Shown: one piece after another, positions 7,697 to 13,700 of the stretch
Layout of the letters: every line of letters starts with the position of its first letter
Position numbering within the stretch: position 1 is the stretch's first letter
Source: Chloroflexota bacterium
GTDB taxonomy: Bacteria; Chloroflexota; Dehalococcoidia; UBA2979
Assembly: GCA_027593235.1 (NCBI GenBank)
Contig: JAQCIU010000027.1
Span: 1-44,214 of the forward strand
Direction: 5' to 3'
Length of the DNA stretch: 44,214 nucleotides
Program-made: the position numbers and the translations under genes
The notes under the pieces: model-generated
Seen by the model: the letters and a program-made list of their open reading frames with translations, nothing else
What the model was told of the DNA's origin: nothing
Databases searched by the model: none

Positions 7697-9010
7697 ATGG
7701 ATCTGCTGCGCACTCGCTTCCCGGCGTTCGGGGTCGCTGACTATCGGCGCCTCTTCATCGCCGCCTCTTTCACCTCCGGCGCGCGCTGGGCGTTGGTGCT
7801 CGGGCGCGGCTGGCTGGTGTTCGAACTGACGGATTCGGCCTTTGCCGTCGGCATGGTGACGTTCGCGGGGTTTTTCCCGTTCGTCGTCGTTGGTCCGTTC
7901 GCCGGGGTGATCGCGGACCGGGTGGACCGGCGACGGATGCTGTTGGTGACCTCCGCACTGGGGGTGGTCACCTCGTTCGCGCTGGTGGCGGTCACCGTCA
8001 CGGATGTGGTCCAACTGTGGCACGTGCTGGTGCTCGCGTTCATCGCGGGTTCGGCGCAGGCGTCGACGATGCCGCCACAACAGGCGTTGCTGGCGAACAT
8101 CGTCCCGAAGGAGCATCTGCTCAGCGCGGTGTCGCTTAGCGGGCTGGCGCAGCACGGTTCGCGGATCATCGGGCCGCTGTTCGGCGCGGCGCTGCTTTCC
8201 GCCTTCGGTGCGGGAGCGGTGTTCATCCTCTCCGCGGCGCTGCTGACGTGCGGCCTGATCGCGGTCTGGCTGATCAAGGCACGTCAGTCCGAGGCGGAAC
8301 AGGCGCTGGCGAAGGCGCCGGGACGTCCGCCGGTGCTGGTCCAACTCCGCGACGGCTTCGACTACGCCCGGAGTGATCGGCGGGTGGCGACGGTGCTGAT
8401 CCTCGTCGCCTTCCACTGCGGCTTCACGATGGCCTTCGATTCGATGATGCCGACGCTCTCGACGATGATCGGGGGCGACAGCGGGACGTACGGCTCGATC
8501 TTGATCGGCCTCGGCGCCGGTGCGGTGGTGGGGATCCTGGGGCTGGCGATGCTCTCCAGTCCGGCGGCGCAGGGACGCGCGTTCTTCGTCGCCTCGGTTG
8601 GCAGCGGCCTGTCGATGCTGGCGCTGGGCTTCGCGACGATCCCCGCGGCGGCCGTCGCGGGAGCGGTGCTGGCGGGAGCCACGCAGGCGTCGTTCATGGC
8701 GCTCTCCGTGACGTTCATTCAGCAGATCGTGCCGGACGCCTACCGAGGACGCGTGTTGTCGCTGTACTCGCTGCTGGCGGCCGGGCACATGGCGTTCATC
8801 AACCTTGGCTTTGGCTGGCTCTCCGAGATCGTTGGGGTCCGGCCGCTGTTGATCGTTCCCGGCCTGCTCTGGGTGGTGATCTTCCTCGTTGCGAGCGCGG
8901 GCCTCGAGGATGTCCGTCAGCTCCTCCGCGAGGGCAGCTTCGGGACCCCGATTGCACCGCCCGCCACGGCCGCTGCCGCCGGTGGCGGTGGCGGCGCGGG
9001 GGGCGACTAG
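7697..9010 (+). CDS. MFS transporter (MFS_3/DHA3-like)
   Basis: About 12 hydrophobic segments; GVIADRVDRRR motif A; VPDAYRGRV. Confidence 0.92.
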   Translation: MDLLRTRFPAFGVADYRRLFIAASFTSGARWALVLGRGWLVFELTDSAFAVGMVTFAGFFPFVVVGPFAGVIADRVDRRRMLLVTSALGVVTSFALVAVTVTDVVQLWHVLVLAFIAGSAQASTMPPQQALLANIVPKEHLLSAVSLSGLAQHGSRIIGPLFGAALLSAFGAGAVFILSAALLTCGLIAVWLIKARQSEAEQALAKAPGRPPVLVQLRDGFDYARSDRRVATVLILVAFHCGFTMAFDSMMPTLSTMIGGDSGTYGSILIGLGAGAVVGILGLAMLSSPAAQGRAFFVASVGSGLSMLALGFATIPAAAVAGAVLAGATQASFMALSVTFIQQIVPDAYRGRVLSLYSLLAAGHMAFINLGFGWLSEIVGVRPLLIVPGLLWVVIFLVASAGLEDVRQLLREGSFGTPIAPPATAAAAGGGGGAGGD

Positions 9011-9094: not shown

Positions 9095-10243
9095 ATGTCC
9101 AACGACCTGCCCGAGCACATCGCCCCGCTGCGCGCGGCGGTCCGCGACTTCGCCGATCGTGAGCTACGGCCGCGCGTCGAGTCGATGGAGGACGCGGGCG
9201 CGATCGACCGCGACCTGATCGATCAGATCGGCCAGCTCGGCTACTTCGGTGCGCCTTTCGAGGAGCGCTGGGGCGGCTCGGGGATGGGTGAGATCGGCTT
9301 CTCGATCGTCCAGGAAGAGCTGGCGCGGGCGCACGCTTCCACCGCGGTGATGGTGGCGGCCTCGTCCGGCCTCGCGGCGCGGATGGTCGCGGTGGCGGGC
9401 AGCGACGAGCAGAAAGAGCGGTTCCTTGGCCCGATGGCGCGTGGCGAGGGGGTGGGCGCGTTCTGCCTGACGGAGGCGAACGCGGGGAGCGATGTCCCGG
9501 CGATGACGACGACGGCGGTCGCCGACGGGGACGATTTCATCCTGAACGGCCAGAAGGTCTTCATCAGCAACGGGCGGCTCGCGCAGTACTTCGTGACATT
9601 CGCGAAGACGGATCCGGCGCAGGGCGGGCGCGGCATCTCGCTGTTCGTGGTCGACGCGGGCACGCCGGGCCTCGAGGTGGTGCGCCTCGAGGACAAGCTG
9701 GGGATCCGCGCATCGGACACGGCACAAATCGCGTACGACAACGTACGCGTGGGGCGCGACCGGCTAATCGGCGACGAGAACACGGGGCTGCGCCACGCCC
9801 TGACGACGCTCAACCAGTCTCGCGTCGGCATCGCATCGATCTCCCTCGGGATGGCGAAGGAGGCGACGAAGCTCGCCTTTGCGTACGCGCACGAGCGGGA
9901 GTTGTTCGGCGGGACGCTCGCAGACCAGCAGGTCAGCCAGCACGCCCTCGCGGACATGCAGATCGCCGTCTACACGGCGGAGTCGATCGTCTACCGGACG
10001 GCGCTGATGGCGGACGCGGGCGAGAACATCGAGGCCGAAGCGTCGATCTGCAAGACCTACGCCTCCGAGGCAGCCGACCGGGTGATCGACCGTTCGCTCC
10101 AGATGCACGGGGGCGTCGGCTACATCCGAGGTTCGGCGATCGAGCGGCTCTACCGCGACCACCGCGTGCAGCGCATCTACGAGGGCGCAAACGAGGTCCA
10201 GCGCAACAACATCTACCGCGTTATGCGGCGGATGTACGGGTAA
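9095..10243 (+). CDS. Acyl-CoA dehydrogenase
   Basis: FCLTEANAGSD, LNGQKVFISN, KLGIRASDT, QMHGGVGY, RIYEGANEV. Confidence 0.95.
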   Translation: MSNDLPEHIAPLRAAVRDFADRELRPRVESMEDAGAIDRDLIDQIGQLGYFGAPFEERWGGSGMGEIGFSIVQEELARAHASTAVMVAASSGLAARMVAVAGSDEQKERFLGPMARGEGVGAFCLTEANAGSDVPAMTTTAVADGDDFILNGQKVFISNGRLAQYFVTFAKTDPAQGGRGISLFVVDAGTPGLEVVRLEDKLGIRASDTAQIAYDNVRVGRDRLIGDENTGLRHALTTLNQSRVGIASISLGMAKEATKLAFAYAHERELFGGTLADQQVSQHALADMQIAVYTAESIVYRTALMADAGENIEAEASICKTYASEAADRVIDRSLQMHGGVGYIRGSAIERLYRDHRVQRIYEGANEVQRNNIYRVMRRMYG

Positions 10244-10247
10244 CGAG

Positions 10248-10889
10248 GTGACGCAACGTCACTGGGACGAGGCGTACAGCGGGACCGCAATCGAGCGAAC
10301 CGGCTGGTACGAGGAGACGCCCACGATCTCGCTCGCGCTGATCGATGAATGCCGGCTCAGTCCGCAGGACTCGATCGTCGACATCGGGGCGGGGGCCTCC
10401 ACACTCGTCGATCGCTTGCTCGATCGAGGGTTCGAGAACCTCGCGGTGCTGGACATCAGCGGCCAAGCGCTCGACCACCTCCGGCAGCGGCTGAGCGCGG
10501 AAGACGCGGGACGGGTCCGTTTCATCCGCACCGACGTCACGGCACCAGACGTGGGATCCGAACTGGGTCCGGTGATGCTCTGGCACGACCGGGCGACGCT
10601 GCACTTCCTGGCGGAGGGTGCGGATTGCGACCGTTACGCGCGGACGCTCCAGGGGTGCGTTGCTCCTGGCGGCTACGCGGTCCTGGCCACGTACGCGCTG
10701 CACGGGGCGCCGACCTGATCCGGGCTCCCGGTGCGTCGGTACGACGCGTCGATGCTTTCGGAACTCGTCGGCGATGAGTTCACGCTAATGCAGTCGATCG
10801 ACCACACGTACTATCAGCCCTCGGGAGACCCGCGTCCGTACGTCTACGCGCTCTTCAAGCGCACCACCCGACCGGAGCCACCGCAATGA
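10248..10889 (+). CDS. Class I SAM-dependent methyltransferase (TPMT-like) read through an in-frame UGA at 10716-10718; candidate selenoprotein (Sec157), 213 aa
   Basis: VDIGAG motif I, LDIS, WHDRA..HFL; after the UGA the frame continues SGLPVRRY...YVYALFKR to a TGA overlapping the next ATG (ATGA); SECIS-like hairpin follows the UGA. Confidence 0.8.
10719..10762 (+). promoter_or_regulatory. Candidate bacterial SECIS element
   Basis: Stem 10729-10738 / 10742-10751 (CGGUGCGUCG-GUA-CGACGCGUCG, two G-U pairs), G-U in the apical loop at +21/+22; lower pairing UCCGGG/UUCGGA. Confidence 0.6.
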
Positions 10890-11755
10890 CCACCGACAGC
10901 AGCCGCTACCTCGTCGAAACCGACTGGCTCGAGGCCAACCTCGACGCTCCCGAGGTGCGCGTCCTCGACTGCACCACGTTCCTCCGCCGTGGCGACGACG
11001 GACGCCTCCGCGCCGAAAGCGGCCACGAGGCGTGGGCCGAGTCCCACATCCCCGGCAGCGTCTTCGCCGACCTGCCCGGCGAGCTGTCGGACAAGGACGC
11101 GAAGCTGCGCTTCATGATGCCGCCGCCTGAACAGTTCGCCGCCGCGATGTCGAGCTACGGCGTCGGTGAGGGCACGCGCGCGGTGCTCTACGACCGTGCC
11201 GCGGGGATGTGGGCCGCCCGCATCTGGTGGATGCTCCGTGCCTTCGGGTTCGAGGACGCCGCCGTGCTCAACGGCGGCTGGACCAAGTGGACCGCCGAGG
11301 GCCGTCCCACCTCGAACGAGCCGAGCGCGCCTCGGACGGCGGCGTTCACGGCGCGGCCGCGACCGGAGCTGATCGCGACGCGCGAGGAGGTGCTCGCCGC
11401 CACCTCGGATGGCGCGACCTGCATCATCAACGCGCTCTCCGAGGAGCAACACCGCGGCGAGGGCGCCTCGCCCTACGGACGGCCCGGTCGCATCACCTCG
11501 AGCGTGAACGTGCCGGCGAACTCCCTCGTCGACCCGGCGACCAACGCCTACCTCCCGCTCGAAGTGCTCCGCGACCGCTTCGCCGGCGTCGGCGCGACCG
11601 AGGCCGGGAAGGTCATCACCTACTGCGGTGGGGGCATCGCGGCGAGCAACGATGCGTTCGCGCTGACGCTGCTCGGCGTGGAGAACGTCGCGATCTACGA
11701 CGCGTCGCTGTCGGAGTGGGCCGCCGATGACTCGCTGCCGATGGAGATCGGCTAG
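10886..11755 (+). CDS. Two-domain rhodanese / 3-mercaptopyruvate sulfurtransferase (SseA-like)
   Basis: LVETDWL, HIPGS, AARIWW, LNGG, YCGGG active-site loop, YDASLSEW. Confidence 0.93.
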   Translation: MTTDSSRYLVETDWLEANLDAPEVRVLDCTTFLRRGDDGRLRAESGHEAWAESHIPGSVFADLPGELSDKDAKLRFMMPPPEQFAAAMSSYGVGEGTRAVLYDRAAGMWAARIWWMLRAFGFEDAAVLNGGWTKWTAEGRPTSNEPSAPRTAAFTARPRPELIATREEVLAATSDGATCIINALSEEQHRGEGASPYGRPGRITSSVNVPANSLVDPATNAYLPLEVLRDRFAGVGATEAGKVITYCGGGIAASNDAFALTLLGVENVAIYDASLSEWAADDSLPMEIG

Positions 11756-11968
11756 CGCATCCGAAGGCGGCTGACGCAACGAGGGCGATGAGATGTCGCC
11801 CACTGCTTTCGTCGTTTCGGGACGCGCCGGATTCGCTGCGTCGAGCAGGTACCGATAACACGCCTCCTCGCAGCCGCTATTACAGACGTGCAGATTGATC
11901 GAGCGCGGTATAGGCTCACGCCCTCGTCATGTGCGAGGAAGTTGCTGGCGGCTGAACTGGGGGTTGCG

Positions 11969-13700
11969 ATGGATCCATGGATCGTTGGCAGTGAGCCGAG
12001 CGAGCGTTTCCCGCTCTGGACGCGTGCGAACGTCGGCGAGGTCTTTCCTGATCCAGTCTCACCGCTGACCTACAGCCTTGCGATGCCCACCGACGTCGAG
12101 GGCGGCTGGCGCGACGCGCTGGTGCGAATCGGCGGGTTCACGCACAAACGAGTTCGCGCCCGGGCGGATGGAGACGCTGGGCGTCTTTGGCGGCTATTGC
12201 TACCTGAACGCGTCGGTGACGCGGATCCTGGGCGAACGGGCGCCCGGCCTCTCCGCGCAGGCGATGGACGACCTCTTCTTTGGGGCGCAGCCAGGGGTGC
12301 CACCCTACGAGGAAGCGCCGGGCGATCAGAACGAGGAGCGCACCGTCGCGGTCGGCGAGGTCTTCCAGTGGGCCTTCGGTGCGGAGCGCCTGGAGGGACC
12401 GGCCGAAGGCGCGAAGCTGGTTGCGGAGCTGCACGCCAAGCGGCCGAACCTGGACGAGATGTCGAACGAGGATCTGTGGTCCTACGGGAAGACGCTCTAC
12501 AACGACTACTTCCGTCAGCTCTTCTCCGAGCACATCTTCACCACGTTCATGAGCACCGTACCGGTCGGCGCGCTGGCACAGGTTTGCGCGGCGGTGGGAC
12601 GTCCCGCCGACGCGATGGGGATCATCTCCGGCGTCGGCGACGTGGAGTCGGCGGCACCCTCGATGGCGATGTGGCGCCTCGGGCGACTCGTGGCGGCGGA
12701 TCCGGCGTTGACCGCGTACTTCAACGGCGGGGTGCCGGGGCTGTTTGAGCAGCTTTCCGAGAACGGCGCCGGTGCGGGATTCCTCGATCAGTTCGACCAG
12801 TTCATCGAGCAATTCGGGGCACGCGGGCCGAACGAGTGGGAGTCGCGAAACCACACATGGGAGACGCGCCCGGAACTGGCGCTGGCAGCGATCGATCGGA
12901 TGCGCCTGGCACCAGAGACCGCGTCACCGGAGCGCGGGAACCGGCGAATGGCGGAGGAGCGCGAGCGGCTGGTCGCCGAGCTTTCGGCGATGCTGGCCGG
13001 CGATCCGGAGACGCAGGGCACGTTCCTCGCGGCCGCGCGTGCCGCGACGGTGTTCCAGGCCGGGCGCGAGCGCACGAAGACCAACGCGATCAAGCTGGTC
13101 CACGAGGGTCGGGTGGCCTTCCACACCATCGGACGGCGAATGGTCGCCGCCGGTCACTGCGCCGAGGTGGGCGACTACGGACTGCTGCTCACCACCGAGT
13201 TCGACGAATGGCTCAAGAACCCGGCGGCGTTCAAGGAGACGCTCAACCAGCGCCGCGCGCTCTACGACACCTACAACTCGCTCCAGGAGCCGTTCGTCTT
13301 CTGGGGAACGCAGGACGACCCGGCGACGTGGCCGCGCAAGGGCGAATCCCCGGTGGCAGCGGTTGCCGTTGGCGACGTGCTGCAGGGCTTCCCGGGTTGC
13401 CCGGGGGTGGTAACCGCGGTGGCGCGGGTGATCCTCGATCCGATCGACCCGAGTGCGCTGGGGCCGGGCGAGATCCTGATCGCGCCGATCACGGATCCAT
13501 CGTGGACGCCGCTCTTCGTGGCGGCCGGCGCGGTGGTGGTGGACGTCGGCGCAGCGCAGAGCCACGCGATGATCGTCAGCCGCGAGCTGGGAATCGCCTG
13601 CGTGCCCTCGGTGACCGAGGCGACGCGGCGGATCCCGAACGGGGCGACGATCACGGTGAACGCGGATGCCGGGACCGTGACGATCGTCGCGCTCCCGTAG
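11969..13700 (+). pseudogene. PEP-utilising enzyme (substrate-binding plus phosphohistidine swivel domains, no ATP-grasp); frameshift from one apparent extra base near 12146-12148 (mutation or sequencing error)
   Basis: N-terminal WTRANVGEVFPDPVSPL in one frame; remainder (TDPSWTP, SHAMIVSRELG) in another; removing one A from CACAAACGAG joins them. Confidence 0.8.

Follow-up and report, generated by a model that had tools for sequence, protein, structure and literature searches.

Positions 10248–10889 of the 44,214-nucleotide stretch analysed here (hereafter the window; forward strand of contig JAQCIU010000027.1, assembly GCA_027593235.1, from a Chloroflexota bacterium of the class Dehalococcoidia) hold what is very probably a genuine and conserved selenoprotein gene, predicted to encode a class I S-adenosylmethionine (SAM)-dependent methyltransferase in which the in-frame UGA at 10716–10718 would be decoded as selenocysteine (Sec; Table 1). 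The frame opens with GTG at 10248 and, under translation table 11, stops at TGA 10716–10718 (codon 157) to give a product of 156 residues; past this TGA, the same frame stays open for 56 more codons (SGLPVRRY...YALFKR...) and ends at TGA 10887–10889. An earlier note on this DNA had described such a read-through frame, with a TGA at 10716, 56 codons beyond it and an ATGA overlap with the start of a rhodanese gene, all of which can be read directly in the sequence. The read-through protein has one internal TGA, in the context G-A-P-T-U (T-U-S-G-L across the site).

Table 1. Features of the predicted methyltransferase gene and its neighbours, with positions in the window.
Feature	Position	Strand	Basis or remark
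Complete gene, very probable selenoprotein: class I SAM-dependent methyltransferase, Sec at codon 157	10248..10889	+	213 codons and terminal TGA
Cys35 codon (TGC), second conserved Cys of the methyltransferase family	10350..10352	+	Cys in 102/113 Cys forms
SAM-binding motif I, D-I-G-A-G-A-S, residues 45–51	10380..10400	+	G47 and G49 invariant; end of strand β1 in the model
W-H-D-R motif, residues 112–115, end of strand β4	10581..10592	+	W112, D114 and R115 invariant; H113 in 112/113
Cys127 codon (TGC), candidate partner of Sec157	10626..10628	+	Cys restricted to Sec forms
UGA, very probably read as Sec, residue 157	10716..10718	+	Column is Cys in 113/113 homologues; TGA at the same codon in other loci
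Putative bacterial selenocysteine insertion sequence (SECIS) hairpin, 10-bp stem and GUA triloop	10729..10751	+	Conserved 6-bp core and loop at 10733–10747
Terminator TGA of the methyltransferase gene	10887..10889	+	Overlaps the rhodanese ATG as ATGA; homologue ends within a few residues
Two-domain rhodanese (sulfurtransferase), downstream neighbour, 289 residues	10886..11755	+	Pfam Rhodanese 84.5 bits, two stretches
Acyl-CoA dehydrogenase, upstream neighbour	9095..10243	+	Pfam Acyl-CoA_dh_N, _M, _1; stop 4 nucleotides before the methyltransferase start
Major facilitator superfamily (MFS) transporter, in the synteny block of the Sec clade	7697..9010	+	Pfam MFS_3 151.7 bits, MFS_1 125.5 bits

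A homologue search with the read-through protein as query returned 1,886 matches, the best 120 of which were listed, and a second search returned 2,957 representatives. Most of the 120 listed matches are 205–220 residues long and cover 94–97% of the read-through protein; at least seven among these best 120 are stumps of 155–162 residues whose last residue is the one ahead of the TGA position, and the truncated database forms P0003, P0020, P0039, P0070, P0088 and P0091 stop exactly one residue short of the site. All 113 full-length homologues in the protein alignment have Cys in the column of residue 157, so the motif G(P/A)xxC-SGLPV, which the earlier note had given, is real, and the in-frame UGA aligns with a Cys of homologues in the Sec/Cys pairing that characterises bacterial selenoprotein genes. 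Homologues with TGA at this codon (hereafter Sec forms, the others being Cys forms) turn up in the protein databases searched only as truncated open reading frames (ORFs); gene callers cut the protein at residue 156, which renders the Sec forms invisible in public protein sets.

Codon 157 has been tabulated at 80 genome loci spanning many phyla (Bacteroidota, Chloroflexota, Methanoperedens, Bathyarchaeota and others), where TGC occurs 44 times, TGT 26 times and TGA once, the other nine loci having escaped the regular expression for this codon and been scored as Cys by eye. Metagenomes contributed 39 further loci, with TGA in five (L109 and L110, which share one encoded protein stretch, among them), Cys in 32 and an uninformative result in two. 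Within the same order as the window, the methyltransferase family is carried by 8 of 99 genomes, with TGA in three (G000, G001 and G003, all of the window's own genus within the Dehalococcoidia) and Cys in five; a ‘TGA’ flag raised for G023 and G122 is the ordinary terminator and not codon 157. A class-level sample gave a family match at E ≤ 1e-40 in 2 of 401 genomes. TGA at codon 157 is thereby found in seven distinct DNAs, namely L021 (the window's own), L022 (G003), L023 (G001), L109, L111, L112 and L113, with L025, identical to L022 over the stretches compared, and L110, alike to L109 in its protein stretch, not counted separately. The Sec forms are 56–68% identical to one another, and the other six are 60–68% identical to the window protein. 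TGA at this codon in other homologues, mixed with TGC and TGT in the rest of the family, is the pattern that the earlier note had anticipated.

Purifying selection is evident downstream of the UGA, where the 21 pairs of the seven Sec-form DNAs have, over codons 158–205, a mean rate of synonymous substitution (dS) of 0.85 and a median ratio of nonsynonymous to synonymous rates (dN/dS) of 0.18; the value for codons 109–156 is 0.22, so the downstream codons are at least as constrained. Ser158, Gly159 and Leu160 are kept in the Sec forms via four, four and three different codons, respectively, and since this Ser-Gly-Leu stretch lies ahead of the GTG of codon 162, codons 158–160 must be translated in the methyltransferase frame. 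Downstream purifying selection, together with the synonymous change at these three residues, rules out a pseudogene and a restart at GTG codon 162. In a quick maximum-likelihood tree (111 distinct rows from 123 extracted, with identical rows merged and rows of fewer than 170 residues after trimming dropped), the seven Sec forms constitute one clade (Shimodaira–Hasegawa-like approximate likelihood ratio test support 99) nested among Chloroflexota Cys forms, indicating one Cys-to-Sec change, retained since.

The earlier note had also proposed a 10-bp hairpin at +11 to +33 after the UGA, with G-U at +21/+22, and RNA folding reproduces it, with a stem at 10729–10738/10742–10751 and a loop of G10739, U10740 and A10741 that begins 20 nucleotides after the UGA; the bacterial SECIS (bSECIS) model places the apical loop 16–37 nucleotides after the UGA. 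A hairpin of at least 10 bp lies within 5–20 nucleotides downstream of 4 of the 507 TGA triplets of the window. The 6-bp core and GUA loop, at +15 to +29 after the UGA, are kept in all seven Sec forms, with the loop identical throughout, four core pairs identical in 7/7, one G-C pair changed to G-U in L022 and one pair mismatched in L023; the core is thus nearly invariant, and just one pair of the hairpin changes on both sides among the Sec forms. The lower stem has no bulge in the window genome (10 bp) and a bulged C in most others, with up to 12 pairs. Codons in the hairpin stretch are frozen, including V162 (GTG in 7/7), R163 (CGT in 6/7, a codon rare at other Arg columns) and R164 (CGG in 7/7). 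Same-order Cys forms allow just 2–6 of the 11–12 hairpin pairs, and in the Cys form L143 an identical VRRYDA peptide is spelled with other codons and no such hairpin is present. Conservation, on which the earlier note had made its proposal depend, is therefore observed for the apex, present in 7/7 Sec forms and missing from same-order Cys forms, and it is from this conservation, not from an exceptional fold, that the hairpin derives its evidential weight.

An Rfam scan of 10600–10900 at E ≤ 10 gave no match, which counts against the SECIS assignment. A genome-wide scan for a hairpin 14–39 nucleotides after an in-frame TGA yielded seven candidates, of which only selD and the methyltransferase look coding; in the selD of the window genome, the UGA is followed by a 7-bp stem with G-GUA-C at its tip, the same apex as in the methyltransferase hairpin, its loop lying 33 nucleotides after the UGA as against 20 in the methyltransferase gene. 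The Escherichia coli fdhF SECIS and the methyltransferase hairpin are both intragenic, lie a short distance past the UGA and present G then U in the loop; in fdhF the loop is longer and a U is bulged. In the public run X4 (one contig, depth 6), T>C at 10749 and C>T at 10750, converting G-U to G-C and G-C to G-U in the hairpin stem, would keep two stem pairs, a hint only.

Machinery for Sec insertion, named in the earlier note as a prerequisite, has been found in full in the window genome, a metagenome bin of 3.39 Mb in 78 contigs (89.7% complete): selA (544 bits), selB (300 bits), selD (359 bits, with one internal TGA) and tRNA-Sec (72.7 bits; called by ARAGORN as tRNA-SeC, anticodon tca) all exceed curated cut-offs. 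selA is also present in the Sec-form genomes G001 and G003 and in the Cys-form genomes G023, G077 and G119; no selA turned up in the Cys-form genomes G114, G122 and G440 (88%, 77% and 96% complete). The selD gene (G000:C16:112734-113672, minus strand, locus L001) is itself a selenoprotein gene, with an in-frame TGA in C-A-G-U-A-G-K. By the standard bacterial mechanism, the hairpin at 10729–10751 would take the SECIS role, with SelB and Sec-tRNA(Sec) binding its G-GUA-C apex while the ribosome is at the UGA. The second TGA, 57 codons on and without such a hairpin, would lead to termination; in the window hairpin scan, the sole hairpin of at least 10 bp at 10600–10900 is that at 10729–10751, ahead of the terminator at 10887–10889.

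Three other accounts of the UGA have been weighed. An error of sequencing or assembly, or a nonsense change from TGC to TGA that arose recently, in what would then be an ordinary Cys-form gene, a pseudogene or an artefact, needs a single base change in a binned metagenome of the completeness and contig number given above, and at least one more apparent lesion lies in the window (overlapping frames 11888–12748 and 12078–13700); the single TGC>TGA error that the earlier note had considered plausible is, however, contradicted by TGA at the same codon in six other distinct sequences, at 60–68% identity and from other genomes and metagenomes, whose divergence excludes copying from one misassembled template, and by the purifying selection on the downstream frame (dN/dS 0.18 at dS 0.85), leaving such an error extremely improbable. 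Public runs with contigs matching the stretch include X1 and X3, which show 0 differences and may both be the source of the window DNA, and hence are not independent, and X4 (record 12, 10694–11200, 20 differences) and X6 (record 16, 10654–10781, 6 differences), which bridge the UGA; among the differences listed for X4 and X6 away from contig ends, none falls at 10716–10718, and no inference is drawn from this. RNA data covering the stretch are not listed among these runs. Termination at the UGA, giving a 156-residue methyltransferase with the downstream part made separately, for example from GTG codon 162, would accord with the 155–162-residue products given by gene callers in 7 of the 120 listed matches and with the invariance of that GTG in 7/7 Sec forms. 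Such a split gene is nonetheless very hard to credit, given that codons 158–160 precede the GTG yet hold Ser-Gly-Leu through synonymous codons (four, four and three), that the truncated product would be without strands β6 and β7 of the model, that no full-length homologue is split, and that no ribosome-binding site was noticed, no formal search having been made. UGA is the leakiest of the three stop codons, and Sec decoding is deduced here from sequence, so that read-through without selenium could be envisaged, by near-cognate suppression with Trp, Cys or Arg as the inserted residue, or through reassignment of the code; against this, a TGA terminates this very gene at the point where its homologues stop, table 11 leaves the genes on either side open, the UGA takes the place of an invariant Cys in the classic Sec/Cys pattern, and the genome holds complete sel machinery with a Sec-type selD, all of which makes selenium-free decoding highly improbable as well.

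Decoding of the UGA as Sec thus stands as very probable, with a number of observations that weigh against it. The Sec forms all come from one clade, and accordingly represent one origin and not independent replicates, while some Sec-decoding relatives (G023, G077 and G119) retain Cys. The 66-nucleotide fold is unexceptional on its own (z = −1.14; 25 of 200 shuffles fold as well), and hairpins with stems of 10 bp or more number 33 on the plus strand of the GC-rich window, where 20 block shuffles average 20.6. The L023 core carries its mismatch, the lower stem pairs in two registers among the seven Sec forms, and the VRRYDA peptide dictates part of the stem. Of the check on the hairpin suggested in the earlier note, recovery of the apex succeeded by RNAalifold and pair counting; covariation proved not significant (0.095 versus 0.078 in shuffles, 106 of 500 being at least as high). 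Bearing on the functional reading proposed below, and not on the decoding, Cys35 is lost in two Sec forms (Leu in L112, Val in L113), the ATGA overlap with the rhodanese is specific to the window genome, and an hhalign alignment to ArsM, a Sec-containing methyltransferase considered below, covers residues 34–149 (the Rossmann core, 94% probability) and stops before the Cys/Sec.

Assignment of the protein to a family is general. Pfam families over their cut-offs are Methyltransf_12 (32.5 bits), Methyltransf_25 (PF13649; 31.4 bits, cut-off 27) and Methyltransf_11 (23.5 bits), a placement as a generic class I SAM methyltransferase, with the domain, SAM motif and fold of that class all present; nine NCBIfam families match at E ≤ 0.01, none of them near its cut-off. 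The ESM Atlas, queried with the Cys-form homologue P0004, gave only generic ‘class I SAM-dependent methyltransferase’ clusters, and a PDB sequence search gave 17 matches, in 16 of which the best-matched stretch ends no later than query residues 147–156, the other (1y8c) ending at 181. An AlphaFold model (predicted local distance difference test score 94, predicted template modelling score 0.90) places β4 at 109–114 (ending in W-H-D-R), a helix at 124–137, β5 at 138–149, then a loop with residue 157, and a helix at 167–174. The top structural matches are 7bgg (Z 21.2), 6mro (21.1), 3ggd (21.1), Ecm18 (20.1) and the halogen methyltransferase 8ajp (19.7), with thiopurine methyltransferase (TPMT) 3bgd (18.9) and TehB (17.7) among further ones; the closest folds are small-molecule methyltransferases, including Htm and bacillithiol methyltransferase, with Z scores bunched at 17–21. 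Judged by the topology, residues 127 and 157 would both sit at the substrate edge of the Rossmann sheet, next to β4 and β5, with Sec157 on its substrate side and adjoining the invariant W-H-D-R.

The protein was called TPMT-like in the earlier note, a label that holds as a distant likeness and not as membership. Among specific Pfam families, PF05724 (TPMT) is the one matched most often in the alignment, by 35 of 114 rows (best E 2.9e-8), and a compact small-molecule fold is shared with TPMT and halide methyltransferases (3bgd, 8ajp, 9h04 and 3lcc; Z 17.6–19.7); the window protein is among the 79 of 114 rows without a PF05724 match at E ≤ 0.01, and a whole-genome PF05724 search likewise did not return this locus. 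TPMT carries W-D-R-G-A-L after β4 and H-x-G-P-P-F after β5, which appear to resemble the W-H-D-R-A-x-L and H-G-A-P-T-U of the window protein. TPMT and halide methyltransferases are not known to have a conserved Cys at the place of residue 157, or Sec forms.

A second residue changes together with residue 157. At position 127, the 113 Cys forms have Arg (54), Gln (53) or another residue (six) and never Cys, but 7/7 Sec-form DNAs and all six other truncated database proteins of the alignment have Cys; the methyltransferase has no CxxU or UxxC motif. One further database protein, P0123 (233 residues, Cys form, 55% identity), has Cys at both 127 and 157 and, past Cys-Asn-Gly-Leu, an Arg/Pro-rich tail unlike the family, and looks like a frameshifted gene call. 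The distant family members P0151 and P0268 (160 residues, 99% alike) and P0185 (161 residues), at 41% and 37% identity, respectively, likewise break off just one residue short of the invariant Cys, and their nearest full-length relatives are 69–71% identical; these three may represent a second, independent Sec lineage, without Cys at position 127.

Methyltransferases are already represented among selenoproteins. Of the 119 prokaryotic selenoprotein families inventoried in Table 1 of PMC13188914 (2026), the methyltransferase-type entries include ArsM (UxxG) with fusion forms, MduS and methylated-DNA-protein-cysteine methyltransferase; ArsM (NF008823) with UxxG is entered there as an experimentally verified selenoprotein, and MduS as a ‘methyltransferase domain-containing selenoprotein’ (Haft and Tolstoy 2025) with PF13649, CxxU and two Sec. 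None of the NCBIfam models named for these entries is among the nine that match the window protein. An algal ‘SAM-dependent methyltransferase’ selenoprotein is mentioned in PMC2375036. No family matching the present one is among the 119 of that Table 1, while the supplementary prediction lists (Peng 2016, the GOS study and deep-Sep) could contain it, and term searches of the text available for PMC1976440, PMC2398784, PMC1088965, PMC9312934, PMC2375036, PMC7539508, PMC12013277, PMC13745706 and PMC1242214 did not find it. We judge the predicted selenoprotein family to be one absent from the inventory's Table 1 and set apart from MduS by description, with the algal methyltransferase outside the comparison. 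A Methyltransf_25 (PF13649) domain in a selenoprotein is common to MduS and the present protein, which differs in having one TGA, and no Cys three residues before the Sec, in place of the CxxU and two Sec listed for MduS; as the two were compared by description only, identity with MduS is excluded solely by this listed motif and Sec count.

One of the nearest parallels is ArsM, also a class I SAM methyltransferase with Sec replacing a conserved Cys in the region after β5, and one in which the role of Sec, as probably for the methyltransferase here, is not that of a classical thiol oxidoreductase. The two differ in motif (UxxG versus T-U-S-G-L) and in length, the window protein being ∼60 residues shorter; in ArsM genes of relatives, the matching Cys stands in a G-C-V-A-G context. 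The window protein has no NF008823 match at E ≤ 0.01 (cut-off 263 bits), and the window genome's own ArsM is a separate gene (C15:136911-137663, 286 bits) with no TGA. ArsM-like paralogues with one in-frame TGA each were also noted in the same class (G001:C6:72418-73083, G046:C126:350-1018, G037:C9:164805-165497, G014:C12:249593-250252 and G042:C1:1868009-1868362); these five score 131–229 bits to NF008823, below the cut-off, and may be Sec-containing ArsM-type methyltransferases.

As to function, the role that we would tentatively put forward is that of an active-site ligand or nucleophile for a soft small substrate of the S, Se, As or Te type, a possibility in which Sec157 would hold or activate the substrate for methyl transfer from SAM, in the manner of the Cys/Sec ligands of ArsM, and Cys127 would be its selenenylsulfide partner, replacing the Arg/Gln that in Cys forms probably tunes the thiol. 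The catalytic or methyl-accepting Cys that the earlier note had inferred likewise stays a hypothesis. A redox switch between Sec157 and Cys127 (Cys35 in Cys forms), whose selenenylsulfide would, on exposure to oxidants or sulfane sulfur, open or close the active site, appears unlikely: although most known selenoproteins are redox-active, as far as PMC13188914 documents them, Cys127 occurs only together with Sec157 (seven Sec forms versus 113 Cys forms) and rhodanese is a conserved neighbour in the Sec clade, the invariance of Cys157 in 113/113 is easier to reconcile with an essential part in catalysis or binding than with regulation, Cys35 is missing from 11 of 113 Cys forms and two Sec forms, and a CxxU or UxxC motif is lacking.

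More doubtful still is a covalent nucleophile at residue 157, acting by Michael-type attack on an unsaturated substrate or through a transient Se-methyl intermediate. RNA m5C and m5U methyltransferases carry their nucleophile after strand β5 (the motif VI Cys), the Cys/Sec here likewise follows β5 in a Thr-Cys/Sec-Ser context, and Sec is both the better nucleophile and the better leaving group; set against these points are the lack of a nucleic-acid-binding domain, the small-molecule methyltransferases that make up the nearest folds, and a weak RsmB/F match in just 3 of 114 members. Least likely among these proposals, and speculative, Sec157 and the co-evolved Cys127 might form a catalytic Se-S dyad in a new methyltransferase chemistry, through a Se-methyl-selenocysteine relay or through methylation of sulfane sulfur or selenium supplied by rhodanese; if true, the dyad would amount to an unrecognised selenium-dependent route to volatile methylated S/Se compounds in aquatic and marine Dehalococcoidia.

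Two things are unusual about the predicted protein, namely that selenium chemistry would take place in the pocket of a methyltransferase and that a change to Cys127 goes with it. A candidate family would be added to a catalogue dominated by thiol oxidoreductases, in which ArsM is the one verified class I SAM methyltransferase in the inventory as tabulated (PMC13188914). Selenium may thus serve here to bind or activate a soft substrate and not to cycle between redox states. The strict pairing of Cys157 to Sec with Arg/Gln127 to Cys constitutes a natural experiment that marks two probable active-site residues, and the pointer to residues 127 and 157 applies to a widespread methyltransferase family of uncharacterised function. 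Use of Sec, with a Sec-type SelD, would also be placed in an uncultured Dehalococcoidia lineage of aquatic, estuarine and sediment metagenomes.

Around the gene, rhodanese lies downstream of the methyltransferase in all eight Sec-form loci that are long enough, with a gap length that varies elsewhere; the acyl-CoA dehydrogenase is syntenic in all Sec-form loci, and homologues of the MFS ORF have been found in L021, L022, L023, L025, L111 and L113 (six loci, five of them distinct, L025 repeating L022). The order MFS transporter, acyl-CoA dehydrogenase, methyltransferase and rhodanese is limited to the Sec clade and may for that reason reflect kinship alone, and these neighbours are compatible with sulfur or selenium chemistry. 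Neighbour clustering found no neighbour conserved across the whole methyltransferase family; the one other large cluster, of 61 loci, was rejected as a conserved neighbour, consisting of antisense shadow ORFs of the methyltransferase itself. Such shadow ORFs (for example 10221–10703 of the window, minus strand) result from conserved coding sequence and high GC. Further downstream in the window, the plus-strand ORFs 11888–12748 (without a Pfam match) and 12078–13700 (PEP-utilizers mobile domain, 64 bits), in different frames, look like one gene with a frameshift near 12080–12130, and the N-terminus of this apparently broken gene (11888–13700), M-D/E-P-W-I-V-G-S-E, is conserved, occurring also in L023.

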